Assembly: GCA_030604825.1 (NCBI GenBank)
Contig: JAUVVB010000010.1
Coordinates: 2,109-66,108 of the forward strand
Reading direction: 5' to 3'
Length of the DNA: 64,000 bases
From: Chloroflexota bacterium
GTDB lineage: Bacteria; Chloroflexota; Dehalococcoidia; E44-bin15
A program made the translations under genes and the position numbers. Below, in pieces: positions 3,053 to 52,408 of the stretch. Positions within the stretch are counted from its first letter, which is position 1. The number at the start of each line of letters is the position of its first letter. The notes beneath the pieces are model-generated. The model was not told the DNA's origin. It worked only from the letters and a program-made list of their open reading frames with translations, and searched no databases.

Positions 3053-3066
3053 ATAGGGGTATAAAG

Positions 3067-4557
3067 ATGTGGGAAAAGGTAGGAGTCAAGATCGCCTGCG
3101 GAGTGTTTAGAACTCTTTGGGGCAAGCTGAAATCCGTCCTGGGTGGGAAAAGGGTGAAGATTACTGCCCGCGAAGTTGAAATCCCTGTCCCTGGAGGACG
3201 AAGCATCAAATATTCTGAGAGGATAACGGAAGTTCCTCTTAGTAAGGAAACAATTAGCCTTGTCGACGGTGGTGTTGAGTCGATACTGACTTCCCCAGCC
3301 ACAGCGGACGCGATTTCAAAGGTGCTTGGCCAAGCCGGGGCGAAGGAACTAGAAAAGCCCAAGGTGAGGGAGAAGAGGATAAAGCAAAGGGAAGATGTGG
3401 AGAGACTTGTGGAAGCTCCTCAGGTCAAAGCCTTGCCCGACAAGGAAAAGCTGCTATTTACGCTCTTCGCCTTTGTTGCTTATGGAGATAAGAGCTTCCA
3501 CTCCGATGCTTTCTGCGAAGCCGAGAATGCCTATCGAGAAGCCTACGAATTTGCCAAAAAGCTCGATGACAAACCCCTTCAGGGTATTTGCCTTAATCTT
3601 ATTGGCACGGCTATAGGTAATCAGCGTAGGGATGAAGAAGCGCTGCCTCTCTTCGAGGAAGCGCTAACGCTCAAATCCGACCTTGCCGAGGCTTGGTATA
3701 ACAAAGGGGTGTCGCTTCTTAGGCTTAAGCGATATGAGAAAGCCACCGTATGCTTTGATAAGGTGATAAGGCTCAAGCCTAACGATGCCGACGCGTGGCA
3801 TGGCAAAGGGGCAGCGCTTTTTGAGCTTGAGCGCTATGAGGAAGCCATCGCATGCTTTGGTGAGGCGATAAGGCTCGAGCCCGACCTTGCCGAGGCTTGG
3901 TATAACAAAGGCACAGCGCTTGCTGGGCTTGAGCGATATGAGGAAGCCATCTCCTGCTTCGATGAGGCGATAAGGCTTGACCCTGATTTTGCCATGGCTT
4001 GGTGTAATAAAGGCGTGGCGCTTAGCAGGCTTGAGCAATGCAAGGACGCCATTCCCTGCTTGGATGAGGCGATAAAGCTCGACCCCGATGATGCCGAGGC
4101 TTGGTATAACAAAGGCACAGCACTTATTGGGCTTGAGCGAGAAGAGGAAGCTATCCCTTGCTTTGATGAGGCGACAAGGCTTAACCCTGACCTTGGTAGC
4201 GCCTGGGCCATGAAAGGGCTGGCGCTGTTCCAGCTTGACCAAGACAAAGAGGCCAAGCAGAGCTTTGAGAAAGCTCTGCCTTTGAGAGATCAACTTCCAG
4301 ATAATGGCATGTCGGTCTTTAACGCTTTAACTTTCCTCATTTTGATGGAGGGGCTGGAGAGCGTTGCCTCAAATGATATAGAAGAAGCTAAGGAGAGAGC
4401 TTCAGAGCTTGCGCAACTGAGGAAAGAGGCGGAGAAAGATAACATGGCTCAGGTGGTCCATCAAGCAAGGGCAGAGTTTAAAGGGATGCTTTCTAAGGGA
4501 CAACTCAAAGGATTTCGCAAGCTTGAAAAGATACTAAGGGAAGTGGAAGAGCCATGA
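3067..4557 (+). CDS. TPR-repeat protein, lower GC (about 50%) than its neighbours; overlaps the der start as ATGA
   Basis: 496 aa with at least 6 tandem 34-aa TPR units (AEAWYNKGxAL..LERYEEAI.CFDEAIRL.PD). The units are near-identical at the DNA level. The N-terminal 200 aa have no recognisable domain. Confidence 0.8.
   Translation: MWEKVGVKIACGVFRTLWGKLKSVLGGKRVKITAREVEIPVPGGRSIKYSERITEVPLSKETISLVDGGVESILTSPATADAISKVLGQAGAKELEKPKVREKRIKQREDVERLVEAPQVKALPDKEKLLFTLFAFVAYGDKSFHSDAFCEAENAYREAYEFAKKLDDKPLQGICLNLIGTAIGNQRRDEEALPLFEEALTLKSDLAEAWYNKGVSLLRLKRYEKATVCFDKVIRLKPNDADAWHGKGAALFELERYEEAIACFGEAIRLEPDLAEAWYNKGTALAGLERYEEAISCFDEAIRLDPDFAMAWCNKGVALSRLEQCKDAIPCLDEAIKLDPDDAEAWYNKGTALIGLEREEEAIPCFDEATRLNPDLGSAWAMKGLALFQLDQDKEAKQSFEKALPLRDQLPDNGMSVFNALTFLILMEGLESVASNDIEEAKERASELAQLRKEAEKDNMAQVVHQARAEFKGMLSKGQLKGFRKLEKILREVEEP
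3652..4260 (+). repeat. Six tandem 102-bp DNA repeats encoding the TPR units (gccgaggcttggtataacaaagg recurs exactly)
   Basis: Direct reading of the sequence. The antisense ORFs 3664..4293 and 3834..4256 are repeat artefacts. Confidence 0.85.
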
Positions 4558-5867
4558 CCAAGCCCATCGTTGCCATAATGGGCAGGCCAAACGTGGGCAA
4601 GTCCACCCTGTTCAATCGCCTGGTGGGAAAGCCGATGGCCATCACCGAGCACACCCCCGGCACCACCAGGGATCGCCTCTATGCCGACATCGTCTGGAGG
4701 GACTCCAGCCTCACCCTCATCGATACCGGCGGCCTGTTTCCCACCCCACCATCGGAGCTGGCCCACAGGGTGAAGGAGCAGGTGCAGGTAGCCATGGATG
4801 AGGCCGATGTAATCATCTTCCTGGTGGATGTAGTGGACGGGGCAACCGTTATGGACAAGGAGATCGCCGAAACCCTGCGCCGCTCGGGAAAGCCGGTAAT
4901 GCTTGCCGTCAACAAGGCCGATAACGAGCAGCGCCGCCAGGAAGCGCTTCAGTTCTACGAGCTTGCCATGGGAGACCCCCTTCCCATCAGCGCCTATCAC
5001 AACATCGGCGTGGACCAGCTGCTCGATATGGTAGTGGAAAATCTCCCCTTCTTCCCCCCTGAGGAGGAGCTGGAGATGATGAAGGTTGCCATTGTGGGTC
5101 GCCCCAATGTGGGAAAGTCCATGCTCCTCAACGCCATCCTGAGGCAGGAGCGGGCCATCGTCACCGATACCCCGGGCACCACCAGGGATGCCCTGGACAC
5201 CATTTTTGAGTATAATGGCCAGCGTATGCTCCTCATCGATACCGCTGGCATTCGGAGGAGGGGAAAGGTTGAGGTGGGCATCGAGCGCTACAGCGTGGCC
5301 AGGGCGCTGCGCGCCATCAGCCGAGCCGATGTTGCCCTGCTCATCACCGAGGCCACCGAGGCCATCACCGCTCAGGATACCCACATCGCCGGCTACATCC
5401 AGGAGGCGTTCAAGGGGATGGTGCTGGTGGTTAATAAATGGGACCTGGTAGAGGAGATGGCGGACCGCTCCCAGTGGACCAGGGAGACCCGGCAACGGCT
5501 CAGGTTCATGCCTTACGTGCCCATCCTTTTCATCTCCGCCAAATACGGCAGGGGAATAGACGATGTTCTCAACGCAGCCAGGGAAATCTTCGAGGAGCGA
5601 CAGAAGCGCGTCGCCACCGCCCTGCTAAATAGCGTCATCCGCGATGCGGTGGATACCCATGCCCCCCCTTCAGTGAGGGGCAAAAGGCTTAAAATCCTTT
5701 ACGCCACCCAGGCGGAGATAAATCCCCCCACATTCGTCTTATTCATCAACGATCCCACCCTGATGCACTTCTCCTATCAGCGCTACCTGGAGAACAGGCT
5801 GCGCCAGGACTTTGGCTTTAAGGGAACGCCACTGCGCCTCATCTTCAAGAGAAGGGGTGAAAGGTGA
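4554..5867 (+). CDS. der: Ribosome-associated GTPase Der/EngA (two tandem GTPase domains)
   Basis: GRPNVGKS appears twice, plus DTGG/DTAG and NKAD/NKWD motifs and a KH-like C-terminus. Confidence 0.9.
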   Translation: MTKPIVAIMGRPNVGKSTLFNRLVGKPMAITEHTPGTTRDRLYADIVWRDSSLTLIDTGGLFPTPPSELAHRVKEQVQVAMDEADVIIFLVDVVDGATVMDKEIAETLRRSGKPVMLAVNKADNEQRRQEALQFYELAMGDPLPISAYHNIGVDQLLDMVVENLPFFPPEEELEMMKVAIVGRPNVGKSMLLNAILRQERAIVTDTPGTTRDALDTIFEYNGQRMLLIDTAGIRRRGKVEVGIERYSVARALRAISRADVALLITEATEAITAQDTHIAGYIQEAFKGMVLVVNKWDLVEEMADRSQWTRETRQRLRFMPYVPILFISAKYGRGIDDVLNAAREIFEERQKRVATALLNSVIRDAVDTHAPPSVRGKRLKILYATQAEINPPTFVLFINDPTLMHFSYQRYLENRLRQDFGFKGTPLRLIFKRRGER

Positions 5868-6490
5868 TCGTTCTCAAGTTTATCGGCATCGTCCTTCTGG
5901 GCTATCTCATCGGCGCCATCCCTTTTGGCGTCATCGCGGGAAGGCTGACTCGGGGCATCGATGTGAGGCAATATGGCAGTGGCAGCATGGGGGCGACCAA
6001 CGTATTGCGCACCATTGGCGCCCGGGCAGGCATCCTGGTCTTCGTGGCCGACGTGGCAAAGGGGGCAGCGGCGGTGGCCCTGGCCTGGCTCATTTTCGCC
6101 TCATCGCCCCATGTGGCCTGGGGTCAGGTGGCCGGGGGGGCGGCAGCCGTCATCGGGCATAGCTGGCCCATATATGTCAAATTCCAGGGCGGGCGCGGCG
6201 TGACCACCGGCCTGGGCGCTCTGATGACGATGCTCTGGCCGGTAGCTCTCATCTGCCTCGCCATCTTCGCCATCGTTTTGGGGTTATCCCGCTATGTCTC
6301 CCTAGGCTCCATGCTGGCAGCCTCGGCAGCGATAGTGTTCACCATCCCCTTCATTATCCTGGGGGAGGAACCTTTTGCCTACCTGGTTTATGGATTGGTT
6401 GTGGTACCCATAGTGCTCTTTCGCCATCGGGGAAACATTCAACGGCTAATTTGCGGAGGAGAGCCAAGGATAGGCAGGACAAGCCCATGA
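5864..6490 (+). CDS. plsY: Glycerol-3-phosphate acyltransferase PlsY
   Basis: GSGSMGATNVLRTIG motif in a polytopic membrane protein. It sits in the conserved der-plsY-gpsA cluster. Confidence 0.85.
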   Translation: MIVLKFIGIVLLGYLIGAIPFGVIAGRLTRGIDVRQYGSGSMGATNVLRTIGARAGILVFVADVAKGAAAVALAWLIFASSPHVAWGQVAGGAAAVIGHSWPIYVKFQGGRGVTTGLGALMTMLWPVALICLAIFAIVLGLSRYVSLGSMLAASAAIVFTIPFIILGEEPFAYLVYGLVVVPIVLFRHRGNIQRLICGGEPRIGRTSP

Positions 6491-7473
6491 AGGTCGCCAT
6501 CATCGGCACCACCGGCTGGGGGACAACCCTGGGGATAATGCTCGGCCGAAGGGACATGGAGGTCGCCCTGTGGGCCAGAACCAGGGAGGAGGCTGAAAGG
6601 CTGGACAGGGAGAGGGAGAACGCCCAGCGCCTGCCTGGCGTTCGCCTTCCCCAAAACCTATCCCCCACCGCCTCCATAGCGGAAGCGCTCCAAGGCGCCT
6701 CGTTGGTTATCCTCGCCGTGCCCTCCCAGGAGATGAGGGCCAATGTCCGGCTTTTGAAGGAGCACGTCGATGAATCGATGCCCATCCTGAGCGCTGCCAA
6801 AGGGCTGGAGCTGGGAACGGCAAAAAGGATGAGCCAGGTGATCGCCGAGGAGCTCGGGCCGGCGCACAGGTCAAATATCTGTGTGCTCTCCGGGCCAAAC
6901 CTATCCCGGGAGATCGTTCAAGGTTTGCCAGCATCAACGGTGGTCGCCGCAGAGGATACGTCACTGGCGGAAAGGGTTAAACGGATAATGAGCTCGCCAA
7001 CCTTCCAGGTTTATACCAGCGACGACGTGGTGGGGGTTGAACTGGGGGGAGCGCTTAAGAACATCATCGCCCTGGGCGCAGGCATGGCCGATGGGCTGGG
7101 CTATGGCAACAATGCCAAGGCTGCCTATATGGCGCAAGGCCTTACCGAGATCACCCGCCTCGGGGTTGCCGCCGGGGCAAGCCCCATCACCTTCATTGGG
7201 CTTTCTTGCCTGGGGGACCTGCTGGCCACTTGCTCCAGCCCGCTGAGCCGAAATCACACCCTGGGGGAAGGGTTAGCCCAGGGACGCTCCCTGGAGGAGA
7301 TAAAGGCCTCTATGGGAAGCGTTGTCGAGGGGGTTGCCACCACCGCTGCCGCCCGCCAGATGGCCCGAGAGCTGGGGGTGGAGATGCCCATCACCGAGCA
7401 GATCTACCGCGTGCTCTTTGAAGGCGAGAGTCCCGCCCGGGCGATGGCAGAGCTGATAGGGGAGCAAGGCTAA
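6487..7473 (+). CDS. gpsA: NAD(P)H-dependent glycerol-3-phosphate dehydrogenase
   Basis: MKVAIIGTTGWGTTLG Rossmann N-terminus. I place the start at the internal ATG at 6487 rather than 6451 because it overlaps the plsY end. Confidence 0.85.
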   Translation: MKVAIIGTTGWGTTLGIMLGRRDMEVALWARTREEAERLDRERENAQRLPGVRLPQNLSPTASIAEALQGASLVILAVPSQEMRANVRLLKEHVDESMPILSAAKGLELGTAKRMSQVIAEELGPAHRSNICVLSGPNLSREIVQGLPASTVVAAEDTSLAERVKRIMSSPTFQVYTSDDVVGVELGGALKNIIALGAGMADGLGYGNNAKAAYMAQGLTEITRLGVAAGASPITFIGLSCLGDLLATCSSPLSRNHTLGEGLAQGRSLEEIKASMGSVVEGVATTAAARQMARELGVEMPITEQIYRVLFEGESPARAMAELIGEQG

Positions 7474-9084: not shown

Positions 9085-10200
9085 TTAGCTGCCGAAGGCA
9101 TCCCTTATGCGGTGTAAAAATCCCTTTTCGCCCTCGGGCATACTGGCCTCTCCCAGGCTTTCTGCCAGCTCCTGGAAAAGCCTTCTCTGGCGCTCATCCA
9201 GCGAGGTGGGGGTGATCACGTGAGCTATTACGACCTGATCACCCCTTCCCCCTCCCCTGAGATGAGGTACCCCCTTCTCCTTGAGGCGAAATAGCTTTCC
9301 CATTTGGGTTCCCGGCGGAATCTTGAGGGTAACCGGGCTATCTACCGTAGGCACCTCCACCTCAGCCCCCAGGGCCGCCTGGGCGAAGTTGATGGGCAGG
9401 TCATAGATGATGTCATCCCCCCTGCGCTGGAAGAAGGGATGCTCCTCAACCGAGAGGGCGATATAAAGGTTCCCCGCACCCGCACCCCAGCTCCCCGCGT
9501 TGCCCTCCCCGCTGAGGCGAATCTGGGAGCCATCGTCTACCCCGGCCGGGATGCGAACCGAGATGCGGCGCTGCCTTCTCTCCTTTCCCGAGCCGCGGCA
9601 ATGATGACAGGGATGGGTGATGATCCTGCCATCACCGCCACAGCGGTCGCAGGGGGTGACGTTGACAAAGCGCCCAAAGATGCTGCGCTGCACCCGGCGC
9701 AACTGCCCCGTCCCGTTGCACTGGGGACACCTTGAGGGCTGGCTTCCCGGCTCGCTGCCCACCCCATGACACTGGGAGCAGTTCTCGATGCGCTCAACCT
9801 CGATCTCCCTTTCGCAGCCGAAAACCGCCTCCTCAAAGGAGATGGAAAGGGAATAGCGAAGGTCAGCACCCTGCTGTGGGCCGCGCCGGGCGGCGGTGGT
9901 GGCGCCACCGAAGAAGCTATCGAAGATATCGCCAAATCCCCGGAAGATGTCGAAGTCCTCAAAGCCTCGACCAAAGCCCTCCCCCACGTGCCTGAAGCGA
10001 TCGTAGTTCGCCCTCTTTTCGGGGTCGGAGAGCACCTCATAGGCCTCGTTGAGCTCCTTGAACCTCTCCTCAGCCCCATCCGCCTTATTGCGGTCGGGGT
10101 GGTGCTGAAAGGCGAGCTTCCTGAAGGCCCGCTTTATCTCCTCCGCCGAGGCCGACCGATCTAGGCCTAAAACCTCATAATAATCTCTTTTGGCAGCCAT
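9085..10200 (-). CDS. dnaJ: Chaperone DnaJ
   Basis: J-domain (YYEVLGL...HPDRN), a G/F region and four CxxCxGxG zinc-finger repeats. Confidence 0.95.
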
Positions 10201-39230: not shown

Positions 39231-39239
39231 GGGGCTATT

Positions 39240-41494: not shown

Positions 41495-41504
41495 GGAGCA
41501 AGCC

Positions 41505-42497
41505 ATGGCAAAAATCTATTATGACAAGGACGCAAACCTAGACCTGCTTAAGGACAGGAAAATCGGCGTAATCGGCTTCGGCAGCCAGGGGCATGCCCAC
41601 GCCCTGAACCTGAAGCAGAGCGGCTGCGATGTCATGGTGGGTGAGTTAAGGGATAGCGAGCCGTGGCGAAATGCCCAGGAGGCAGGGCTTAAGGTGGCCA
41701 CCGCCGAAGAGGTGGCCAAGGCCTCTGACATAATGGTGATGCTTGTCCCCGACCAGCTCCACCGCCAGGTGTATCATGCCTCCATCGAGAAGGGGCTTGA
41801 TGGAGGCAACATGCTCATGTTCGCCCACGGCTTCAACATCCACTACGGCCAGATAATCCCACCCCCCGATGTCGATGTCACCATGATAGCGCCCAAGTGT
41901 CCCGGCCATATGCTGCGCCGCCTCTATGAAGAGGGCTCCAGCGCCCCCGCCCTGGTGGCAATCCACCAGGATGCCACGGGCAAGGCAAAGGAGATCGCCC
42001 TGGCCTATGCCAAGGGAATCGGTTGCACCAAGGCCGGGGTCCTGGAGACCACCTTTGCCGAGGAGACGGAGACCGACCTCTTCGGGGAGCAGGTGGTGCT
42101 CTGCGGCGGCATCAGCGCACTGGTGAAGGCTGCCTTTGAAACCCTGGTGGATGCCGGCTATCAGCCGGAGATCGCCTACTTCGAATGCCTCCACGAGCTA
42201 AAGCTAATCATCGACCTCATCTACCAGGGAGGCCTGAGCTATATGCGCTATTCGGTGAGCGATACCGCAGAGTATGGCGATTATACCCGCGGGCCGAGGG
42301 TGATCGACGACCTGGTGCGGGAGGAGATGTGGCAGATACTGAGCGAGATTCAGGATGGCACCTTCGCCCGGGAGTGGATACTGGAGAATCAGGCGGGGCG
42401 TCCCAGCTTCAACCTGATGAGGCGCATGGAGGCGGAGCACGAGATAGAGGAAGTGGGCAAGAAGCTCAGGGAGATGATGCCCTGGCTCAGGGGATGA
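41505..42497 (+). CDS. ilvC: Ketol-acid reductoisomerase
   Basis: 330 aa. [13 protein letters not shown] Rossmann motif and C-terminal KARI domain. Confidence 0.95.
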
Positions 42498-42513: not shown

Positions 42514-43341
42514 ATGGCTATTCCGTCGGAGAAAAATATAGAACTTCCGCTACTCCTTGAAATAGAAGCAGCAGGAGGGAAGGCAAGAGCATCAGACTTG
42601 TATGATGCTGTAGCAAGGCATTTCCCGAGCCTCACTCAGGCTGACCAAGAAAGGAGACACCTCAAAAGTAACTTGCCTATTTGGCGGAACAGGGTTCAAT
42701 GGGCTAGGCAACACCTGGTTATCAAAGGCGAAGTCGACGCCCCCGCTCGAGGCATTTGGCGGATTACTGGAAAAGGAAGAGAACGACTGGGGAAAGGTGG
42801 ACAGGGTCCGTCGCCACCCCCACCTCCTCCACCTACGATTAGAGAGATATTAGAGAGAGAGACGCAGCAACTCCGCCAGCAGTTACATGACCTATTGATG
42901 AACTTAGACCCCCGACAGTTTGAGCTGTTTGCAACAAAGCTTCTTGAGAGTGTAGGCTTCACAGACCTGGAAGTGACGAACTATACTGGAGATGGTGGTA
43001 TCGATGGCTATGGAAATCTGGAGATGGGAGTGGTCAGAGTTAAAGCAGCATTTCAAGTGAAACGGTGGCGTCAAAATGTGCCCCGTCCTGAGATTGACCG
43101 CTTTCGTGGCGCGATAGCAGGAAGTTTTGACCAGGGGATATTCATTACCACGTCTGACTTCTCAGACGAAGCAAAGCAGGTATCGAGTAGGCCAGGAACG
43201 GTTGCCATTGTTCTAATCAATGGCAATAGGATTGTGGATATCCTGCTGGAAAAGGCATTAGGCGTTAGGCGTGAACCGCTCAGCATAACGAGAATTGATG
43301 AGGATTTCTTCATGGCCTTTGGCATTTCAGGGGAGGAGTAA
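42514..43341 (+). CDS. Mrr-like type IV restriction endonuclease (Mrr_N winged helix, poly-Pro linker, Mrr_cat), about 49% GC, embedded between ilvC and leuA
   Basis: Catalytic-domain signature FELFATKLLESVGFTDLEVTNYTGDGGIDGYGNLEMG...AFQVKRWRQNV...FRGAI matches PD-(D/E)xK Mrr_cat. Proline linker GGQGPSPPPPPPPT. 16-nt gaps on both sides, each with its own SD. Confidence 0.75.
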   Translation: MAIPSEKNIELPLLLEIEAAGGKARASDLYDAVARHFPSLTQADQERRHLKSNLPIWRNRVQWARQHLVIKGEVDAPARGIWRITGKGRERLGKGGQGPSPPPPPPPTIREILERETQQLRQQLHDLLMNLDPRQFELFATKLLESVGFTDLEVTNYTGDGGIDGYGNLEMGVVRVKAAFQVKRWRQNVPRPEIDRFRGAIAGSFDQGIFITTSDFSDEAKQVSSRPGTVAIVLINGNRIVDILLEKALGVRREPLSITRIDEDFFMAFGISGEE

Positions 43342-43356: not shown

Positions 43357-44892
43357 ATGGAGCGCGTTATAATCTTCGACACCACTTTAAGGGATGGGGA
43401 GCAATGCCCGGGGGCAACCCTCAACATCGATGAGAAGCTGGAGATTGCCCACCAGCTAGAGCGGCTGAAGGTGGATGTCATCGAGGCTGGCTTCCCCATT
43501 GCCTCCCCCGGGGACTTCGAGTCGGTTCGCCTCATCGCCAAGGAGGTGAGGGAGCCCATAATCTGCGCCCTGGCCCATGCCAATCCCGAGGCGGTGGACC
43601 GCGCCTGGGAGTCAATAAAGGAGGCAAAGAGGGGGCGGATTCACGTCTTCCTCTCCAGCTCCGACATTCACCTCACCCACCAGCTCAGGATGGGGCGTGA
43701 GGAGATCCTTGAGCTTGCCACCGCCATGGTGGCTCGCGCCAAGGGTTATCTGGAGGATGTGGAGTTCTCGCCCATGGACGCCACCCGCACCAACCCCGAG
43801 TTCATCTACCAGATCCTCGAGGCCACCATCGATGCCGGGGCAACGACGGTCAACATCCCCGATACCGTGGGCTACACCACCCCCGAGGAGTTCTCCCGGC
43901 TGATCAGGGGCATCTTCGAGAACGTGCCCAACATAGATAAGGCGGTGGTCAGCGTTCACTGCCATGACGACCTGGGCCTTGCCGCGGCCAATAGCCTGGC
44001 TGCCATCGCCAGTGGTGCCCGGCAGGTGGAATGCACCATCAATGGCATTGGTGAACGGGCAGGAAATGCCTCCATGGAGGAGATCGTGATGGCGCTCCAC
44101 ACCCGAAAGGACTTTTTCCAGCTGAGCACCAATATCGACACCACCCAGATCTATAAGACCAGCCGCCTGGTGAGTGAGCTTACTGGCTTCGCGGTACCGC
44201 CCAATAAGGCGGTGGTAGGGGCAAACGCCTTCCGCCATGAGGCCGGGATCCACCAGGATGGCATCCTGAAGGAGCCCACCACCTATGAGATCATGGATGC
44301 CCGCACCGTAGGGCTGCCAGCCAGCGCCCTGGTTCTGGGCAAGCACAGCGGGCGTCACGCCCTTAAGGCCAGGCTCGAGGAACTGGGCTATACCCTAAGC
44401 AAGGAGGAGCTAAATCGCGCCTTCTCCGCCTTCAAGGAGCTCGCCGACAAGAAGAAGGAGGTTACCGACCGCGACCTGGAGTCCCTGGTGGCCGAGGAGA
44501 TGCGCACCATATCGGAGACCTATCACCTGGACCAGGTTCAGATTTTCTGCGGCGACCGCAGCGTTCCCACCGCCACGGTCAGGCTCATCACCCCCGAGGG
44601 CAATGTCATCGCCGATGCCGCCCTGGGCACCGGCCCGGTGGACGCCGTCTATAAGGCCATCAACCGCCTGGTGGGAGTGCCCAACGTGCTCACCGAGTTC
44701 AGCGTTAAATCGGTGACCGAGGGCATCGATGCCATCGGTGAGGTGACAATAAGGATAGAGAGCGAGGGGAAGGTGTACACTGGAAGGGGCGCCGCCACCG
44801 ACATCATCGTTGCCAGCGCCAAAGCATATATGAACGCCCTCAACCGGCTCATAGCGGCAAAGGGCATCAAGGGAAAGGAATCCGGGTCATGA
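43357..44892 (+). CDS. leuA: 2-isopropylmalate synthase
   Basis: 511 aa. [18 protein letters not shown]...the LeuA catalytic TIM barrel plus the C-terminal regulatory domain. Confidence 0.9.
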
Positions 44893-45041
44893 CCTCGGAG
44901 GAGAAAGCTCAAGGAAAGGTCGAGAGCCGCCTGGCAAGCCTGGAGCTAAACTTCAAGATACTGCTGGCATTGATCCTGGTTAGCCTCAGCGCAAGCCTCG
45001 TCGCCCTGATAATAGCCCTGGTGACGCTGCTCACCGCCTAA
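44889..45041 (+). CDS. Possible 50-aa single-TM micro-protein between leuA and leuC ([50 protein letters not shown])
   Basis: The ATG overlaps the leuA stop as ATGA. The ORF ends 26 nt before the leuC ATG. Below the track's length cut-off. Confidence 0.3.
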
Positions 45042-45067
45042 TGGTGCAACCAAAAGGAGATTGCCCC

Positions 45068-46324
45068 ATGACCTTAGCCGAAAAGATCCTCGCTGCCCAT
45101 TCAGGCAAAGATAAGGTCAGCCCTGGCGAGTTCCTAAGCGTCAGGGTTGACCTGATATTGGCAAACGATGTCACCGCCCCCCTCGCCATCAGGGAGTTTC
45201 GCCGCATCGGCGTCCAAAAGGTCTTCGACCCCCAAAGGGTGGTGATGGTGCCCGACCATTTCGTGCCCAATAAGGACATCCCCTCCGCAGAGCAGGCAAA
45301 GCTGATGAGGGAATTCGCCCAGGAGCAGGGTTTGGTCTATTTCGAGGTGGGCAGGATGGGCATCGAGCATGTGCTGCTTCCGGAGCAGGGGTTGGTTGTC
45401 CCCGGGGATGTGGTCATTGGCGCCGACTCCCACACCTGCACCTATGGCGCTTTGGCGGCGTTTGCCACCGGGATGGGCTCCACCGACATCGCCTCCGCCA
45501 TGGCCACTGGAGAGATATGGATGAAGGTCCCGCCCACCATGAAGTTCGTCTATCAGGGCAGGCCGGGGAGATGGATCAGCGGCAAGGACCTCATCCTTTA
45601 TACCATCGGAGACATCGGGGTTGATGGCGCCCTCTACTCGGCAATGGAGTTTTCGGGCGAGGCCATCGATTCCCTTTCCCTGGACAGTCGCTTCAGCATG
45701 GCCAACATGGCCATCGAGGCTGGCGCCAAGGCAGGCATCTTCAGGGTTGATAAAAAGACCTTAGCTTATGTTCGGTCCCGCGCCAAGCGTCCCTACAAGG
45801 TCTATGAGCCCGCTGAGGATGCTCAATATGCAAAAGTCATTGAGTACGATGCCTCCAATATCGAGCCCCAGGTTGCCTTCCCCCACCTCCCCTCCAACAC
45901 CAGGCCCATAAGCGAGGTGGGCGAGGTGAGGATCGACCAGGTGGTGATCGGCAGCTGTACCAACGGCCGCCTTGAGGACCTGGAGACCGCCGCCGAGGTG
46001 CTCAAATGGAGAAGGGTTCACCCCGAGGTGCGCCTGATCATCATCCCCGGCTCCCAGAAGGTCTATCTTGAGGCGATGCGCCGCGGCCTGATCGAGACCT
46101 TCGTCCTGGCCGGGGCAGCGGTGAGCACCCCCACCTGCGGTCCCTGCCTCGGCGGGCATATGGGAGTGCTGGCAGCAGGAGAGTGCTGCCTTGCCACAAC
46201 CAATCGCAATTTCGTGGGACGCATGGGAAGCCCGGATTCGGAGGTCTATCTGGCGGGCCCGGCAATCGCCGCCGCCAGCGCCATACTGGGCAGGATTGGA
46301 AGTCCGGAGGAGGTGGCGGCATGA
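45068..46324 (+). CDS. leuC: 3-isopropylmalate dehydratase large subunit
   Basis: Aconitase-family motifs (VPDHF, GSCTNGR, CGPCLG). Start set at MTLAEKIL (AAGGAG SD) rather than 45041. Confidence 0.9.
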
Positions 46325-46363
46325 AGGCTTTATGGAATCTTTTATTTGAAAGGAGGTGAAGAA

Positions 46364-46567
46364 ATGAAAGGAACGATAAAGAGACTCATCCGGGACCGGG
46401 GTTTCGGCTTCATCGGTGCAGAAGATGGGGAAGAGTTCTTCTTCCACCGCTCCGCTTTGGAAGGGATAGATTTTGAGGCTCTAGAAGAGGGCGACAGCGT
46501 AGAGTTCAATTCGGAGCGGGGACCTAAAGGCCTCCGGGCAGTGAATATAAGGACGATAAAAGCTTAG
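46364..46567 (+). CDS. Cold-shock protein (CspA family)
   Basis: MKGTIKRLIRDRGFGFIGAEDGEEFFFHRSAL, the RNP1/RNP2-like OB-fold motifs. Start set at the internal Met. Confidence 0.85.
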   Translation: MKGTIKRLIRDRGFGFIGAEDGEEFFFHRSALEGIDFEALEEGDSVEFNSERGPKGLRAVNIRTIKA

Positions 46568-46581: not shown

Positions 46582-46866
46582 ATGCTAACAGTGACAGCAC
46601 ATGCGGCAGAGGAGCTTAAGGCTGTGGCCGAGGCTGAGGGCACAGAGCCTGACCAGGTGCTAAGGCTGGTCCCTGCGGAGTCAGGAATGCTGACTCTGGT
46701 CCTTGATACGGTCAGGGAGGGAGACCAGGTGGTGGAGCATGAAGGAGGCAAGGTACTGTTGGTCGGAGCCGAACTAGCTGACGCCGTTGACGGGCTGATG
46801 CTGGATGCTGAGCATACGGCAGAGGGTTGCCGACTAGTTATATCTGGACCCACTCCCGAAGCCTGA
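46582..46866 (+). CDS. HesB/IscA-fold protein lacking the Cys ligands (degenerate A-type carrier-like)
   Basis: LTVTAHAAEELKA...LRLVPAESG.LTLVLD...EGDQVVEHEGGKVLLVGAELADAVDGLMLD aligns with the IscA fold. Only one Cys, and it is not at the ligand positions. Confidence 0.5.
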   Translation: MLTVTAHAAEELKAVAEAEGTEPDQVLRLVPAESGMLTLVLDTVREGDQVVEHEGGKVLLVGAELADAVDGLMLDAEHTAEGCRLVISGPTPEA

Positions 46867-47027
46867 GTCAACGACGGAGATGTGAGCGAATGCGGCAAGT
46901 GCCACCCCTATCGCCATCAAGGCGGCTGCCCAGCCAGGCGGATTAGCGAACCCAAAGTTCGTATATACCACTTTTAGGCGAAATTCCGTAAGAATGTTCA
47001 GGAAAAAGGGATAAAAAGGAGGTCAGA

Positions 47028-47303
47028 ATGAATATCTACGTAGGCAATTTGTCACGCGAGGTCACAGAGGAGGAATTGCGGGAGGCATTTGAGGCTTTCG
47101 GGCAGATCACATCCGCCAGAATCATCACGGACAAATTCAGCGGCGTATCGAGAGGATTCGGATTCGTGGAGATGTCTGACAAAGCTGAAGCCCAAGCCGC
47201 GATCACCGGCCTGAACGGCAAGGAGCTGAAAGAACGAGCGCTTATCGTTAATGAGGCTCGCCCTCGCTCCGAAGGCGGTCGAGGTGGTGGGCAGCGCTTC
47301 TAG
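47028..47303 (+). CDS. RRM-type RNA-binding protein with a Gly-rich tail (Rbp family)
   Basis: RNP2 IYVGNL and RNP1 RGFGFVEM; C-terminal GGRGGGQRF. Confidence 0.85.
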   Translation: MNIYVGNLSREVTEEELREAFEAFGQITSARIITDKFSGVSRGFGFVEMSDKAEAQAAITGLNGKELKERALIVNEARPRSEGGRGGGQRF

Positions 47304-47442: not shown

Positions 47443-47519
47443 CACAACCGGCTGTGGCGATGGCTGCCGCCAGCGCCATACTGGGCAGGATCGCAAGCCC
47501 GGAGGAGATGGTGGGGTGA
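47443..47519 (+). repeat. Diverged duplicate of the leuC 3' end (about 80% nt identity to 46255-46324). It keeps a 25-aa in-frame micro-[31 protein letters not shown], whose stop overlaps the SD of the next gene
   Basis: ggctgccgccagcgccatactgggcaggatcgcaagcccggaggagatggtggggtga compared with the leuC end cgccgccgccagcgccatactgggcaggattggaagtccggaggaggtggcggcatga. Confidence 0.8.
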
Positions 47520-47528
47520 AGGAGGGGG

Positions 47529-48494
47529 ATGTGTTCAGTGAGAGCAGAACATAAAAAACGCCAAATTATTGATAAAGCAAACAGAAGAGCTAAGAAGCTA
47601 AGGCCTAAATGCTTTTTTAGTAGTTGCAGCGAACTTGCAATAAACTCACATTCTCAATCAGTGGGGCGTTCCCTAAAGAATATAAGTGTAGACGATAAAG
47701 TAATAGGGCTTAGTATAGATCCGTTTCGCCCTCCGGAAGATGTTGACGATTGGTTTAAGGAGATAGGAATTAGGCAAGCCTCGCTTTTCAAAGGCTTCTG
47801 CTGGAAACACGATAGTGAGTTTTTTAGATCCGTTGATGATTTCGAAATGGCAGATATGGATAAGGTGACATTGGCAAAATTGGCATTTAGAACGTTCGCA
47901 ATGGCAGTCAGAATTAAACAGCAGGAATCATGCAGGATGTCGACGGTCATTAAAGAGAGTGAAGGAATATTCTATACTGACGACCTTTACTATCATAATG
48001 TAGGCCAGAGAGTGTTTCTAAAAAAGGATTTTCCTTACTATTTGAGTAAATTTGAGAAAATGTTTAATTCTGACAACTACGACGATGTAGAAAGCGCGGT
48101 TTTTTTGCTCAATAGAAACATTGGGATATCATGTTCGACTGTTATTGACCCAACTCTTATAAGCCCAAAAAACCTATACGACCATGATATCGTTGACCTC
48201 CAACCAGCGATGTTTTTTACTGTCTTACCGGATTTTGCCGAAACAACTGTCATATTCACATATTTCATAAACGATAAACAAGCAGCTCTCAACTTTATTG
48301 GAGAGCATGATAAACTAGAGGATATAGTATTCAATCACTGTGAAGATGTATTATTTAATCCTCATTTTTTCCACTCTCTTACTGATAGCCAAAAGAGGAA
48401 AATCGTAAAGGCTTTAGCTCCTTGGATAGTTTGGGGAAAAGTGCAATTCCCCGATTTATTTAAAGTGAATCTAACTTCACCAAATTACTATTAA
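47529..48494 (+). CDS. Orphan 321-aa protein, about 38% GC in a roughly 62% GC context; no family I can assign; basic N-terminus with a Cys/His cluster
   Basis: Long clean ORF with an AGGAGGGGG SD; AT-rich codon usage quite unlike its neighbours. N-terminus KKRQIIDKANRRAKKLRPKCFFSSCSELAINSHS ... GFCWKHDSEFF. Sits between the leuC-end duplicate and leuD. Confidence 0.6.
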   Translation: MCSVRAEHKKRQIIDKANRRAKKLRPKCFFSSCSELAINSHSQSVGRSLKNISVDDKVIGLSIDPFRPPEDVDDWFKEIGIRQASLFKGFCWKHDSEFFRSVDDFEMADMDKVTLAKLAFRTFAMAVRIKQQESCRMSTVIKESEGIFYTDDLYYHNVGQRVFLKKDFPYYLSKFEKMFNSDNYDDVESAVFLLNRNIGISCSTVIDPTLISPKNLYDHDIVDLQPAMFFTVLPDFAETTVIFTYFINDKQAALNFIGEHDKLEDIVFNHCEDVLFNPHFFHSLTDSQKRKIVKALAPWIVWGKVQFPDLFKVNLTSPNYY

Positions 48495-48542: not shown

Positions 48543-49058
48543 TTGAAACTGCAAGGCAAAGTCCACAAATACGGGGCCAACATCGATACCGATGCCATCA
48601 TCCCCACTCGCTACCTGAATATATCCGAGCCCGCGGAGCTGGCAAAGCACTGCATGGAGGGTATTGACCCCGATTTCGTGGGCCGGATGGAAAAGGGCGA
48701 TTTCATCGTTGCTGGCACCAACTTCGGCTACGGCTCCTCAAGGGAGCATGCCCCCATCGCCATTAAGGAGGCGGGGATATCGTGCGTCATCGCCTCAAGC
48801 TTTGCCCGCATCTTCTTCCGAAACGCCATCAATATCGGCCTGCCCCTGTTGGAGTGTGCCCCGGCGGAGGAGGAAAGCGAGGCGGGGGACATCCTGGAGG
48901 TGGAGCTCAAAAGCGGCAAGATCAGGAACATCACCAGGGATAAGCTTTTTCAGGCCGAGCCCTATCCCGATTTCATGATGGAGCTCATCTCGGCAGGGGG
49001 GCTCATCGAACATACCAAGAAGAAGATAGAGGCGAGGAGGCGCCAGGGTGAGATTTGA
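48543..49058 (+). CDS. leuD: 3-isopropylmalate dehydratase small subunit
   Basis: 171 aa. LeuD swivel-domain motifs ([13 protein letters not shown]). TTG start with a GAAGGGGG SD. Confidence 0.85.
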
Positions 49059-50139
49059 CATCGCCCTTTTGCCCGGCGATGGCGTTGGTCCCGAGGTCAC
49101 CGCTGAGGCGGTCAAGGTTCTTGAGGCGGTGGGCAAAAGGTTCCATCACCAGTTCTCCTTTAATCAAGGGGACATTGGCGGGATCGCCATCGACCACCAC
49201 GGGGTGGCTCTGACCGGGGATACGCTCAACATGTGCCAGAGGTGCGATGCCGTCCTCCTAGGGGCGGTGGGCGGCCCCAAATGGGATGACCCCAGGGCGA
49301 AGGTTCGCCCTGAGGACGGGCTTCTCGCCCTGAGAAAGGGGCTCAGGCTCTTTGCCAACCTCCGCCCGGTAAAGGTTCTCCCCATGCTCATCGATTCCAC
49401 CACCATAAAGCCCGACGTGATTAAAGGGGTTGACCTGGTGGTGGTTCGTGAGCTTACCGGCGGGCTCTACTTCGGCAAACCCAAGAGGCAGTGGCAGACA
49501 GCCAGAGGGAGGAAAGCGGTAGATACCCTGGCCTACTCCGAGAAGGAGATCGAGCGCATCCTCAGGGTTGGCTTTGAGCTTGCCCGAAGCCGCAGGAAAA
49601 GGCTGGCCTCGGTGGACAAGGCCAATGTGCTGGAATCCTCCCGGCTTTGGCGGCAGATCGCCATAGAGCTCTCCATCCACTATCCCGATGTGGAGCTGCA
49701 GCACCTGTTGGTGGATGCCTGCGCCATGAGACTCATCCAGCGCCCTTCGGAGTTCGATGTAATCGTCACCGAGAACATGTTTGGCGACATCCTCACCGAT
49801 GAGGCATCGATGCTTGCCGGCTCCATGGGGATGCTGCCCTCGGCAAGCCTCGCCGGAATTCCCAAGGCAGGGGAAAAGACCTTCGGCATGTACGAGCCCA
49901 TCCATGGCAGCGCCCCGAGAAGGGCGGGGCAGAACATAGCCAACCCCATCGCCATGATCACGAGCGTGGCCATGATGCTGCGCTACTCTTTCGCCCTGGC
50001 GGAGGAGGCGGAAGCGATAGAGGGGGCGGTAAGCGATGTGCTGGAGGAAGGTTACCGCACTTATGATATAATGGAGGAAGGCAAAAAGCAGATAGGCACC
50101 AGGGAGATGGGGGATTTAATTGCGGGGAGAATGGGTTGA
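49048..50139 (+). CDS. leuB: 3-isopropylmalate dehydrogenase
   Basis: 363 aa. Isocitrate/isopropylmalate dehydrogenase signature [26 protein letters not shown]. Confidence 0.9.
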
Positions 50140-50660
50140 TGGTGGAGAGGGTGGCAATCTTCATAGACGGAAGCAACTTCTACCACACCTTGAAGGACAA
50201 CTTCGCGCGGGCAGACCTGGATTTTGGAGCTCTTGCCTCTAAACTGTGTGGTGACCGCCTTCTTGTCCGCACCTATTACTACAATGTCCCTGTTGACCAG
50301 AAAAGGGAGCCCCAGAGATATGCTGACCAGCGGAAATTTCTCGCTCGGCTGCACCTGACCCCCTACCTTACCCTAAAGCTAGGACGGCTGGTTTACCGAG
50401 GAGGTATCCCCATCGAGAAGGGCGTTGATGTAAGGTTAGCCACCGACATGTTGAACCTGGCATGGAAGAATGTTTACGATACAGCGATCACCGTTACCGG
50501 AGATGGGGACTTTGCCGATGCGGTGGAGGCGGTGAAAGAGCTGGGCAAACATGTGGAGAACGCCTTTACCAAGAAGGGGTTGTCTCAGCACCTTCGGCAG
50601 GCTTGCGACCGCTTAATTATTTTAGACGAGGGTTTTCTGAAGGAATGCTGGCTAAAATAA
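50136..50660 (+). CDS. NYN-domain (LabA-like) nuclease, about 52% GC; start overlaps the leuB stop
   Basis: [14 protein letters not shown]...[17 protein letters not shown]...[16 protein letters not shown] matches the acidic-residue pattern of NYN/PIN-like ribonucleases. Confidence 0.7.
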
Positions 50661-50812
50661 TAAGCAGGGGGTGAAAGTTTCCTTTGACCCCCTGGCGGTT
50701 ATTACCCGCCATGGCCTAAGCGATGGCGGGGCGATAATTACGTTATGATAATATATTAATACTGTTGAATTGTCAAGTCCTTTTTGAGAATTGGCAAACT
50801 CGGGGATAACAA

Positions 50813-52408
50813 ATGCGGCAGATCCAGCTCTATGACACCACCCTCAGAGATGGGGCGCAGCGGGAGGGAATCTCCTTCACCGTTGAGGATAAGCTCAGGA
50901 TCGCCAGTAAGCTGGACGAGCTGGGCATCCACTTCATCGAGGGGGGCTGGCCGGGCTCAAACCCCAAGGACGATGAGTTTTTCGCCAAAGCGAAGCAGCT
51001 CAACCTCTCCCACGCCCAGCTTGCCGCCTTCGCCTCAACCCGGCGACCAAAGATAAAGGCGGAAAGGGACCCTAGCCTTCGCGCCCTGCTTGAGGCGGGA
51101 ACCAGGGTGGTTACCATAGTGGGGAAGAGCTGGGAGCACCACGTAACTCAGGTATTGGGGACCACCCTTGAGGAAAACCTGCGCATGATCGCCGATTCCA
51201 TAGGCTATCTAAAATCCCAGGGGCGCATGGTCTTCTTCGATGCCGAGCACTTCTTCGATGGCTATAAGGCAAACCCGCAATACGCCCTGAAGACCATAAA
51301 GGCGGCCGCCGAAGCCGGGGCTGATTGCCTCATCCTCTGCGACACCAATGGTGGCGCCCTGCCCTCTGAGGTAGCTGTCGCCACCACTGCCGCCGCGGAG
51401 ATGGGCATCCCCCTGGGCATCCATGCCCATAACGATGCCGAGCTTGCGGTGGCAAATACCCTAGCCGCCATCGAGGCGGGAGCCACCCAAGTTCAGGGAA
51501 CCATCAACGGCTACGGCGAGCGCTGCGGAAACACCAACCTGTGCTCCATCATCCCCACCTTCAAGCTCAAAATGGGCATCCCCTGCATCAGCGACGAGCA
51601 GCTGGCCAAGCTGACCGAGATGGCCCACTATGTGGCCGAGGTAGCCAACCTCACCGTGGATAACCACCTTCCCTACGTAGGGTCAAGCGCCTTCGCCCAC
51701 AAGGCGGGGCTTCACGTCGATGCCATGATGAAGTGGGAGGAGAGCTATCATCACATCAATCCCGAGCAGGTGGGCAATCGGTGGCGCACCCTTATATCCG
51801 AGCTTTCGGGAAGGGGAGGCATAGTTTATAAGGCCAGGGAAAGGGGACTGGAGCTGGCCGCCAAGGATGAGCAGACCCGCGCCATACTGGAACAGATCAA
51901 GTCCATGGAGAGCCGCGGCTTCCAGTATGATGGCGCCGAAGCCTCCTTCGAGCTCCTTATCCGGCGGGCTCAGCCGGACTACCATCCCCCCTTCGAGCTG
52001 GTGGATTTCATGGTGGTGGTGGAAAAAAGGCGCCGCCCACCAACCATCGAGGAGGAGGAGCTCCTATCTGAGGCCACGGTGAAGGTGAAGGTGGGGACCG
52101 ATGTGATCCATACCGCAGCCGAGGGAAATGGTCCGGTAAATGCCCTAGATGCAGCGCTCCGTAAAGCATTGCTGGTTTTCTACCCCAGCCTGGCGGCGGT
52201 AAGGCTGGTGGACTATAAGGTTCGCGCCATCGAAGGAACGGAGGGAACCGCCTCCAGGGTGCGCGTCCTCATCGAATCCAGCGATGGCGAGCATGAGTGG
52301 AGGACGGTGGGCAGCTCCACCAACATCATCGAGGCAAGCTGGCTGGCACTGGCCGATAGCCTTGAGTACTGGCTGCTGAAAAAGCAAGGAGAGGGGACTA
52401 TACTTTAG
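50813..52408 (+). CDS. cimA: (R)-citramalate synthase (LeuA-family, CimA type)
   Basis: 531 aa. LYDTTLRDGAQ...IEGGWPGSNPKD...HAHND. The C-terminal LeuA-dimer-like domain and length fit CimA. Confidence 0.75.
   Translation: MRQIQLYDTTLRDGAQREGISFTVEDKLRIASKLDELGIHFIEGGWPGSNPKDDEFFAKAKQLNLSHAQLAAFASTRRPKIKAERDPSLRALLEAGTRVVTIVGKSWEHHVTQVLGTTLEENLRMIADSIGYLKSQGRMVFFDAEHFFDGYKANPQYALKTIKAAAEAGADCLILCDTNGGALPSEVAVATTAAAEMGIPLGIHAHNDAELAVANTLAAIEAGATQVQGTINGYGERCGNTNLCSIIPTFKLKMGIPCISDEQLAKLTEMAHYVAEVANLTVDNHLPYVGSSAFAHKAGLHVDAMMKWEESYHHINPEQVGNRWRTLISELSGRGGIVYKARERGLELAAKDEQTRAILEQIKSMESRGFQYDGAEASFELLIRRAQPDYHPPFELVDFMVVVEKRRRPPTIEEEELLSEATVKVKVGTDVIHTAAEGNGPVNALDAALRKALLVFYPSLAAVRLVDYKVRAIEGTEGTASRVRVLIESSDGEHEWRTVGSSTNIIEASWLALADSLEYWLLKKQGEGTIL

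Follow-up and report, generated by a model that had tools for sequence, protein, structure and literature searches.

Accessory genes at the joints of two conserved housekeeping operons in a Dehalococcoidia-type genome

Background

Insertion is known to create operon pairs of a native gene and an ORFan, with native promoters driving their expression (Price, Arkin & Alm 2006, 'The Life-Cycle of Operons', PMC1480536), and insertions internal to operons are much rarer than additions at operon ends (PMC1480536). In Escherichia coli, e14 and phage 21 integrate in the 3' end of icd and leave the 3' pseudogene icdC (PMC13626634; Hill et al. 1989, cited there). In Dehalococcoides, the ssrA islands stand in tandem and are bounded by repeats of the ssrA 3' end (McMurdie et al. 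2011, PMC3146451), and 15 of the 31 described ssrA islands have no integration module (PMC3146451). The free-standing homing endonuclease genes seg and mob of the T-even phages are promoter-less, co-oriented cassettes between conserved genes (PMC2988022). Here, we report on a 64-kb stretch of contig JAUVVB010000010.1 from a Chloroflexota bacterium (64,000 nucleotides, referred to below as the window), in which AT-rich accessory genes lie at four sites within the argF-der and ilv-leu strings of housekeeping genes. Our analysis indicated that these genes are probably secondary gains, acquired at various times, and that they entered two conserved housekeeping operons of a compact, Dehalococcoidia-type genome at the joints between the host genes. 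In a limited literature search, we found no paper on operon-joint cassettes or on leuC-end repeats in Dehalococcoidia.

The identities of the host genes and of the inserts were taken from Pfam and NCBIfam searches, and defence matches were taken from PADLOC. Relatives of the ilv-leu string were collected by a scan of genome collections with leuC and by look-ups of homologs of a 321-aa protein encoded in the string, while relatives of the argF-der string came from a scan of metagenomes with der. The contigs of these relatives are labelled with L-numbers (L001, L083, L179 and so on).

The two housekeeping strings and their inserts

The window has a GC content of 0.584, is approximately 90% coding, and 39 of its 48 core junctions are co-directional. 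It contains two long co-directional housekeeping strings, argF-der-plsY-gpsA and ilvD-ilvB-ilvN-ilvC-leuA-leuC-leuD-leuB-cimA, and all of the hosts and inserts are on the plus strand. The genes and sites concerned are listed below, with the GC content at third codon positions (GC3) where it is needed.

2162-3052 (+): argF, ornithine carbamoyltransferase (Pfam OTCace/OTCace_N); host on the 5' side of the TPR insert
3067-4557 (+): tetratricopeptide-repeat (TPR) protein, 496 aa (Pfam TPR_1 and related families; GC3 0.53); insert unique to the window lineage
4554-5867 (+): der/engA GTPase (Pfam MMR_HSR1 x2 and KH_dom-like); host on the 3' side of TPR, start of the der-plsY-gpsA string
5864-6490 (+): plsY; host
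37462-37490 (+): promoter-like site TTGACA-17-TATTTT with TG, from a consensus scan only; 5' of ilvD, candidate operon promoter
37569-42497 (+): ilvD-ilvB-ilvN-ilvC (NCBIfam equivalogs); hosts, GC3 0.76-0.79
42514-43341 (+): Mrr-type restriction endonuclease, 275 aa (Mrr_N and Mrr_cat; GC3 0.46); insert unique to the window lineage
43357-44892 (+): leuA (NCBIfam); host
44889-45041 (+): small membrane open reading frame (ORF), 50 aa, single helix; overlaps leuA (ATGA) and leuC (TAATG)
45041-46324 (+): leuC (NCBIfam); host
46364-46567 (+): cold-shock-domain protein (csp), 67 aa from ATG (Pfam CSD); first gene of the csp-HesB cassette
46582-46866 (+): HesB/IscA-like protein, 94 aa, weak family match; second gene of the csp-HesB cassette
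47028-47303 (+): RNA-recognition-motif (RRM) type RNA-binding protein, 91 aa (Pfam RRM_1); separate unit after a 161-nt spacer
47529-48494 (+): 321-aa protein, GC content 0.37, between a leuC relic and leuD; older insert common to sister lineages
48543-49058 (+): leuD (NCBIfam); host
49048-50139 (+): leuB (NCBIfam); host
50139-50660 (+): NYN/LabA-like nuclease-domain protein, 173 aa from ATG (Pfam NYN, 99.7 bits, residues 5-163); TGATG overlap with leuB
50813-52408 (+): cimA, citramalate synthase (NCBIfam TIGR00977, 737 bits); last host of the string

The 13 host genes have GC3 values of 0.71-0.80, with a mean of approximately 0.76. The values for the csp, HesB-like, RRM, 321-aa and NYN genes are 0.54, 0.56, 0.63, 0.36 and 0.63, and every insert lies approximately 3-15 sampling standard deviations under the host mean (our own binomial estimate). 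Among the confidently annotated protein genes of the window, only inserts fall below a GC3 of 0.64. The original prediction, which was made from the letters of this stretch, had noted AT-richer genes inside housekeeping operons, and this was borne out: the TPR gene, the Mrr gene, the csp/HesB-like/RRM/321-aa genes and the NYN gene are all co-oriented with their hosts and have GC3 values of 0.36-0.63 against 0.71-0.80. Most of the inserts are of a defence, toxin or stress/RNA-binding type.

The same joints in relatives

The best relatives identified with leuC are metagenome-assembled genomes (MAGs) of Dehalococcoidia and Chloroflexota, and the closest of them, L083 and L084, share 89% amino acid identity with the window in ilvC and 92% in leuA. 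The flanking genes of all four sites are adjacent and co-oriented in relatives lacking the inserts (L083/L084, L081, L004, L008 and L087-L093). In each of the ten relatives examined at this joint (L083/L084 and eight others), ilvC adjoins leuA and the Mrr gene is absent, with a spacer of 51 nt in L083/L084. In the closest relatives, leuC is followed directly by the 321-aa gene (18 nt in L083/L084) or by leuD, and leuB adjoins cimA in L081 (12 nt), L007, L008 and L009. The argF-der-plsY-gpsA synteny was found in 27 loci; L087 and L089-L093 have no TPR gene at the argF-der joint, and there the two genes overlap by ATGA (L089-L093) or argF runs into the start of der (L087).

The distribution of the inserts is patchier than that of the operons. 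The Mrr and TPR genes were found in the window lineage only, csp-HesB in the window, L179 and L180, the 321-aa gene in the window, L081 and L083-L086, and NYN in the window and L006. Elsewhere, the joints hold other genes, none of them against the strand of the operon: in L001, a 68-aa ORF and a ParE toxin preceded by a partner gene; in L065, a GIY-YIG protein and, at the leuA-leuC joint, a treble-clef zinc finger; GNAT, RidA and a 145-aa protein in L006; GNAT, an MGMT-like fragment and an AT-rich 186-aa protein in L007; MgtC, PNPOx and an MGMT-like protein in L011/L012; an AT-rich 151-aa protein in L005; an AbiGi-like protein in L088; and a conserved protein with two transmembrane helices in more distant lineages. 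Because the joints are closed in the nearest relatives, hold other co-oriented occupants elsewhere, and carry in the window genes with a GC3 far under that of the hosts, a secondary gain is the reading that we favour. The comparison argues that the four sites are real secondary insertions into operons that already existed, and that joint occupancy is a clade-wide property in Dehalococcoidia, not that of one lineage. The proposal of a lineage-specific mode of gene gain was thus not upheld, since the same joints hold other co-oriented accessory genes across the class.

The 50-aa ORF between leuA and leuC has a host-like GC3 of 0.75 and a ratio of nonsynonymous to synonymous divergence (dN/dS) of 0.6, indicating weak constraint. 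It is kept in L083-L085 (as a 45-aa ORF) and in L006, while the leuA-leuC slot of other relatives holds an MgtC-family gene instead. This ORF is an older resident of the joint with native composition.

A second kind of joint occupant was observed in L001, where an approximately 100-nt repeat (copies 77-88% identical), a filler resembling a miniature inverted-repeat transposable element or a repetitive extragenic palindrome, fills the ilvB-ilvN, ilvN-ilvC and leuA-leuC joints as well as downstream sites. Its copies on L001 are as follows.

5717-5968: repeat copy
6575-6675: repeat copy
9894-9990: repeat copy
14594-14721: repeat copy
15915-16038: repeat copy

Orientation and junctions of the inserts

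All five independent insert units of the window are co-oriented with their operon (p = 0.03), and none of approximately 20 further independent inserts at the same joints of relatives is antisense (p ~1e-6). Landing between co-directional genes is unsurprising because the window is 90% coding and most of its junctions are co-directional. The unexpected part is that all of the events took place at joints that measure -4 to approximately 50 nt in relatives, and that all are co-oriented. The ancestral joints are of this size only, and native co-directional spacers of 78-1692 nt in the window were not used.

The original prediction had described the junctions as seamless and competent for ribosome binding. 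This holds for the ATGA overlap of the TPR gene with der, for the TGATG overlap of leuB with NYN, and for the joints of 14-16 nt, namely ilvC to Mrr (16 nt) and Mrr to leuA (15 nt), both of which contain an AAGGRG motif, and csp to HesB (14 nt). The distance from leuC to the ATG of csp is 39 nt. It does not hold for three long spacers, which measure 161 nt (HesB to RRM), 225 nt (RRM to the 321-aa gene) and 152 nt (NYN to cimA).

A terminator scan found none at the joints and fewer terminator-like sites than in shuffled sequence, and a consensus scan gave one good promoter-like site, 5' of ilvD. Because of the Shine-Dalgarno (SD) motifs, the overlaps and the lack of terminator-like sites at the joints, read-through expression of the inserts from the operon promoter is plausible. 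We also noted a gene for the termination factor Rho in the window (19921-21189, minus strand), which bears on polarity from poorly translated AT-rich passengers.

At the argF-der site, the TPR ORF stops at the TGA that ended argF ancestrally and that overlaps the der ATG, and argF has gained a new TAA stop. A tandem AGGGGTATAA x2 at the argF stop was considered as a target-site duplication and rejected, because the two copies do not flank the insert but stand together on one side of it. Positions 3632-4243 of the TPR gene consist of six tandem 102-nt (34-aa) units with approximately 70% nucleotide identity, so part of the gene appears to have grown by internal repeat amplification.

At the ilvC-leuA site, the Mrr ORF fits exactly into the interval between two SD-like motifs rich in purines, and the inserted DNA is approximately the ORF alone. 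The protein combines an N-terminal Mrr_N winged-helix domain with a C-terminal Mrr_cat PD-(D/E)xK domain (Pfam 66 and 88 bits, above the cutoffs) and matches PDC-S02 (139 bits) and mREase_IV in PADLOC; it is predicted to be a type IV restriction endonuclease of the Mrr family. The unusually long 51-nt spacer of L083 (2969-3019) contains both SD-like purine runs, 4 nt apart and colinear with the Mrr junctions, and may represent either the state before insertion or the scar of a lost gene.

A duplicated leuC terminus at the leuC-leuD joint

At the leuC-leuD joint, the end of leuC occurs twice.

46250-46327 (+): direct repeat 1 (DR1), the last ~67-75 nt of leuC; replacement gene terminus, ends EEVAA*
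47456-47522 (+): direct repeat 2 (DR2), relic of the ancestral leuC 3' end, directly 5' of the 321-aa gene; 85% identical to 46261-46327 (67 nt)

Searches with nhmmer gave E values of 4.5e-16 for the leuC terminus and 8.7e-14 for the relic. The relic keeps the sister-type terminus GTGGGGTGA and a tight AGGAGG junction to the 321-aa gene. It reads PAVA...EEMVG* followed by AGGAGG, and the sisters end in EE[VI]VG*, whereas the functional leuC reads PAIA...EEVAA*. Because the relic shares the C-terminus and the junction of the sisters, it is the displaced ancestral terminus, and the functional terminus came with the insert. In L179 (86% amino acid identity over the part of leuC present), leuC-csp-HesB with the same junction is followed by two further leuC-end relics (nhmmer E values of 8.9e-11 and 3.1e-7) and then by a different AT-rich gene, giving three leuC-end copies in a row in total. 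All of the relics start within approximately 10 nt of one point, 62-75 nt 5' of the stop codon. Judged from these sequences, the leuC-end relics indicate repeated recombination at one point of the leuC terminus, with each round giving a substitute end.

The leuC-csp-HesB order is found in L179 (86% amino acid identity) and L180 (99%), while the start of the RRM gene is present in L180 and the gene is absent from L179. Homologs of the 321-aa protein (66% amino acid identity) lie between leuC and leuD in L083-L086 and L081, and there is no csp, HesB or RRM gene there. The block between leuC and leuD had been taken as one insert; it now resolves into three or more units that differ in age: the csp-HesB cassette, the RRM gene and, as an older one, the 321-aa gene. 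The encoded domains of the cassettes are CSD, HesB-like and RRM only, and no integrase or excisionase gene is present among them. A sliding comparison of identity to L083 revealed no recombination breakpoint in leuC. A degenerate third relic between HesB and RRM (~46890-46950) seemed plausible by eye and is colinear with the first relic (A) of L179, but nhmmer gave no match at E<10 and we do not claim it. Later horizontal sharing of the csp-HesB cassette is only suggested by the divergence of its sequence, as discussed below.

The HesB-like protein scored 19 bits against Pfam Fe-S_biosyn (below the cutoff) and 20 bits against NCBIfam IscA_HesB_Se, and 94 homologs were found. Homologs with 70% amino acid identity form a tandem pair 3' of rpoD in one Dehalococcoidia lineage (L174/L175, 6001-6704), and in L176-L178 homologs stand directly after a treble-clef zinc-finger gene of the family that also occupies the leuA-leuC joint of L065.

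The older inserts: the 321-aa gene and NYN

The synonymous divergence (dS) of the 321-aa gene from its homologs in L083 and L081 is 0.63-0.67, against 0.54-1.07 for the flanks, and its dN/dS is 0.30, against 0.08-0.24. Between the window and L083, nucleotide identity is 0.78 for the 321-aa gene, 0.80 for leuC and 0.79 for leuD. As its divergence matches that of the flanks and it is under purifying selection, the 321-aa gene appears to be a functional gene that has diverged together with the operon. Its GC3 is 0.36-0.40 in three lineages, with 0.39 in both L083 and L081, against approximately 0.70-0.75 for the hosts, and a homolog in an unrelated contig of 42.5% GC has a similar GC content of 0.37.

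The 321-aa protein has no family match in Pfam, NCBIfam or PADLOC. It had been called an orphan, a description that was overturned by a profile search: the protein belongs to a large unannotated family of 3001 clusters at 50% identity, with members of approximately 320-380 aa, some of which carry an N-terminal SEC-C motif. C28, C33, SHSQS at 40-44 and GFC..HD at 89-95 are invariant in the family. A first AlphaFold model, from 8 sequences, was poor, with a predicted local distance difference test (pLDDT) score of 63, while a second, from an alignment of 36 sequences, reached a pLDDT of 90.3 and a predicted template modelling score of 0.90. In a Foldseek search, this model had no match in the PDB (best E value 0.29, template modelling score 0.13) and no nuclease-fold match. 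An early guess of an HNH-like Cys/His nuclease motif was dropped, as it found no support in the confident model. In Omnitrophota and other contigs, homologs neighbour an EcoRV-type restriction-modification system, methyltransferases, MazE, FRG, Hypoth_Ymh, RmuC and PLD-like genes and an integrase; from this neighbourhood alone, a defence role for the 321-aa protein is a guess.

The NYN gene has a counterpart with 86% amino acid identity at the same leuB-cimA site of L006 and is an older insert common to the two lineages. The two copies show a dS of 0.92 and a dN/dS of 0.07, and their GC3 values are 0.63 in the window and 0.51 in L006, again under the host range. The protein matches HEC-09 (62.8 bits) and NYN in PADLOC and falls in a 15-member cluster at 90% identity annotated in Dehalococcoidia. 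A structured element follows the gene directly.

50664-50745 (+) (L006, 6767-6843): 78-nt two-hairpin element, directly 3' of the NYN stop codon and inside the 152-nt NYN-cimA spacer

The window and L006 share 97% identity in this element, although the remainder of the spacer has diverged and the flanking coding sequences have a dS of 0.7-0.9. Its minimum free energy is -46 kcal/mol (z -5.3), it had no match in Rfam, and it is absent where NYN is absent. It is part of the NYN unit.

These two genes bear on the age of the inserts. The original prediction had read lower GC as pointing to gene gain, but low GC does not mark a recent arrival: both genes occupy the same sites in sister lineages at a dS of 0.6-0.9 and are still AT-rich. 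The low GC content of the older inserts thus looks like a stable trait that carries no time stamp. The younger gains are the Mrr, TPR and csp-HesB-RRM units. The finding of the same genes at the same sites with matching composition in relatives had been named as grounds for giving up the idea of inserted genes; the 321-aa and NYN genes do recur at their sites, and their composition there is still unlike that of the hosts.

Proposed course of events

We propose that an insert at an operon joint would persist only if it is co-oriented with the operon, free of terminators, and keeps the hand-over of ribosomes to the downstream essential gene, through an SD motif or an ATGA or TGATG overlap. A persisting insert would be transcribed as a passenger of the operon mRNA, and deletion bias would later trim its flanks, down to the ORF alone. 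The tight joints of the older inserts may reflect selection for translation of the downstream essential gene together with deletion bias in a compact genome. Such trimming would account for the scars and long spacers of young inserts (csp-HesB and RRM) and for the tightness of old ones (the 321-aa gene and the 5' joint of NYN).

For the leuC-leuD joint, the mode of entry can be sketched further. Incoming DNA appears to have recombined approximately 65-75 nt 5' of the leuC stop codon; it brought a substitute terminus, and the original one was left further downstream as a relic. Repetition of this event would have stacked cassettes, with the newest nearest to leuC. The candidates for the enzymatic step are a recombinase acting in trans and Campbell-type homologous recombination of a circle carrying one repeat and a cassette. 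This entry mechanism applies, as far as the repeats indicate, to one site only, the leuC-leuD joint.

A more far-reaching reading can be drawn from the same data, and we consider it rather unlikely. Under it, the last ~70 nt of leuC would be a reusable docking site that serially captures promoter-less, integrase-less cassettes, each bringing a fresh gene end; the tight joints of essential operons would be distributed slots for defence and stress genes that replace defence islands; the 321-aa protein would act alone as a defence protein of a new kind, with a fold not recognised so far; and the 78-nt hairpin would be a functional partner of the NYN cassette.

Alternative explanations

That the pattern arose when metagenome sequences were wrongly assembled or binned, so that strains or species were joined into chimeras, is scarcely credible. 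It is true that the window comes from a 66.6-kb metagenome-type NCBI contig and that the composition of the inserts is unlike that of their flanks, but the joins lie at codon-exact overlaps with reading frames preserved, and most of the arrangements recur independently. L180, from an independent Logan assembly, is 98.7% identical over the leuC end, csp, HesB and the start of RRM; five other contigs also have the 321-aa gene between leuC and leuD, and L006 has NYN between leuB and cimA (JGI and NCBI contigs); and a Mrr gene with 274 of 275 residues identical is present on another Logan contig. Chimerism, a concern raised in the original prediction, is excluded for most inserts by these assemblies. 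It is also quite improbable that the inserts are ancestral operon members that were lost repeatedly in the sampled relatives. Such losses would fit the presence of the 321-aa and NYN genes at the same sites in some relatives, and the 51-nt spacer of L083 with its two SD-like motifs could be a deletion scar. However, the Mrr and TPR genes are absent from every relative examined, including the closest, and the occupants are unrelated to the pathways of their hosts, differ between lineages and deviate in composition. Furthermore, a leuC-321-aa junction already existed when the csp-HesB-RRM stack was added 5' of it, as the leuC relic shows.

A third alternative concerns composition. The low GC content may have evolved in place, through weak codon selection, AT-biased mutation without a GC-keeping force, or selection for low expression, and would then be silent on transfer and age; we regard this as a serious possibility, only a little less likely to be right than wrong. 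It is favoured by the 321-aa gene, which has stayed at its low GC3 in three lineages despite its own dS of 0.63-0.67 and a flanking dS of approximately 0.5-1.1 and has an equally AT-rich homolog in an unrelated contig, and by NYN, which has kept a GC3 of 0.51-0.63 at a dS of 0.92. Nevertheless, evolution in place accounts for composition and not for position, as the empty joints, the differing occupants and the leuC relics still need insertions, and the native small ORF between leuA and leuC has kept a GC3 of 0.75 despite its weak constraint. The nuclease-type inserts, in turn, could be free-standing genes resembling homing endonuclease genes that spread by intronless homing, among them Mrr, NYN, the GIY-YIG and restriction-endonuclease-like genes of relatives and possibly the 321-aa gene. 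We judge this improbable. Predicted PD-(D/E)xK (Mrr_cat), NYN and GIY-YIG (L065) domains and a ParE toxin do occur at the joints, in ORF-only, apparently promoter-less and co-oriented inserts; yet many occupants are not nucleases (TPR, csp, RRM, HesB-like, GNAT, MgtC, PNPOx and RidA), and no co-conversion was found, as leuC and leuD of the window become no more similar to those of L083 toward the 321-aa gene. The 321-aa and NYN genes have diverged at a pace similar to that of their flanks, in keeping with vertical descent, terminal duplications are no signature of homing, and the 321-aa model has no nuclease-fold match.

Several points weigh against secondary gain of passenger genes as we have set it out. 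Co-transcription and translational coupling were read from the sequence alone, and the spacers of 161, 225 and 152 nt could harbour promoters or processing sites; the last of them holds the strongly conserved hairpin element. The polarity of gain versus loss was decided by parsimony from MAG fragments, with no species tree, and the TPR gene is an insert without an independent assembly. No recombinase was found in any cassette or among the window ORFs scanned, a scan that was not exhaustive. Duplicated host termini were not found for argF, ilvC and leuB, that is, at the TPR, Mrr and NYN joints, so the scar is present at one of the four sites and the leuC mechanism cannot be generalised to the other three. 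Between the window and L179, third-position identity is 0.83-0.87 for csp-HesB and 0.75 for leuC, a difference of marginal significance (p = 0.07).

Other features of the window

The first 40 nt of a minus-strand tRNA-Thr(CGT) gene are repeated at 97.5% identity 4.4 kb away (31133-31207 and 35639-35678). The interval contains a periplasmic binding protein, a major facilitator superfamily transporter and approximately 1.5 kb of low-GC DNA without an assignable gene. The repeat resembles a scar left by integration or duplication; such scars usually involve the 3' half of a tRNA gene, whereas this one involves the 5' half. A repeat of 100-185 nt is present three times (~80-88% identical; 32630-32820, 34140-34290 and 35190-35300), each copy just 5' of a minus-strand ORF; it had no match in Rfam and folds no better than shuffled sequence (z -0.4). 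A cyclic-di-GMP-II riboswitch (61757-61840, minus strand, 62.5 bits) lies 5' of a 102-aa ORF (61435-61743, minus strand), and a 5S rRNA gene (62843-62960, minus strand) lies in the AT-rich right end of the window.

Significance and comparison with known systems

Genomes that have hardly any intergenic DNA to spare appear to house accessory genes within indispensable transcription units, where, as passengers of essential operons, these genes would gain free expression and protection from deletion. Atypical GC content is not usable for dating here, since two of the inserts have remained AT-rich through a synonymous divergence of 0.6-0.9. If it is general, serial recombination at the leuC terminus without an integrase would be a simple route of cassette exchange among uncultured Chloroflexota. 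The window also offers leads for further work: a family of 3000 clusters with a confident model, no PDB match and defence-island neighbours, a hairpin tied to NYN, and candidate single-gene defence proteins.

The inserts resemble the operon insertions of PMC1480536 in that a foreign or taxonomically restricted gene stands beside native genes, co-oriented, unrelated in function and, judging from its context, apparently expressed from a native promoter. They differ in that 50 kb contain five units, all of them in two operons, and in that the joints (-4 to approximately 50 nt) are reused class-wide.

As with e14 and icd, entry at the leuC-leuD joint would have taken place inside the 3' end of a metabolic protein gene, with a substitute terminus that changes a few amino acids and with the native terminus displaced as a fragment. 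A direct repeat of the leuC end flanks the insert, and its upstream copy completes the ORF while the downstream copy is truncated, as is the case at icd. Unlike e14, the leuC cassettes measure 0.6-1.2 kb, hold one to three small genes, and contain no integrase, excisionase or phage genes. In addition, the leuC site is inside an operon, so that leuD and leuB depend on passage through the insert, and several rounds stand in tandem.

The Dehalococcoides ssrA islands come from the same bacterial class and likewise form tandem arrays in which copies of the target gene's end separate the units. In the window, the order is leuC, csp-HesB-RRM, relic and 321-aa gene, and in L179 it is leuC, csp-HesB, relic, relic and the different AT-rich gene (gene X). 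However, their target is a transfer-messenger RNA (tmRNA) gene with a 20-bp repeat, while here it is the protein gene leuC with a repeat of 50-75 nt, and no tmRNA gene was found in the window. The ssrA islands are also kilobases long, may carry a module with the serine recombinase DsiB, and are not inside an operon.

The stack is also reminiscent of integron cassettes, which are promoter-less and co-oriented, lie 3' of a fixed recombination point with the newest nearest to it, and would be driven by an upstream promoter. Here, by contrast, the separators are direct copies of the leuC terminus, a scan for inverted repeats gave no attC, and no intI or attI was present in the sequence examined.

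Like seg and mob, the inserts are ORF-only, seemingly promoter-less and of the same orientation as their neighbours, would ride on polycistronic transcripts, and include some occupants with Mrr_cat, NYN and GIY-YIG domains. The differences are the cellular host, the many non-nucleases, the lack of co-conversion tracts, and the apparently vertical inheritance of the older inserts. By analogy, the free-standing endonuclease genes of T4 may be regarded as the closest functional counterpart of the nuclease-type passengers. Unless the docking-site reading is general, the window is not revolutionary; what it contributes beyond these known systems is one concrete clue to mechanism, the apparent serial replacement of the leuC end, and several leads.

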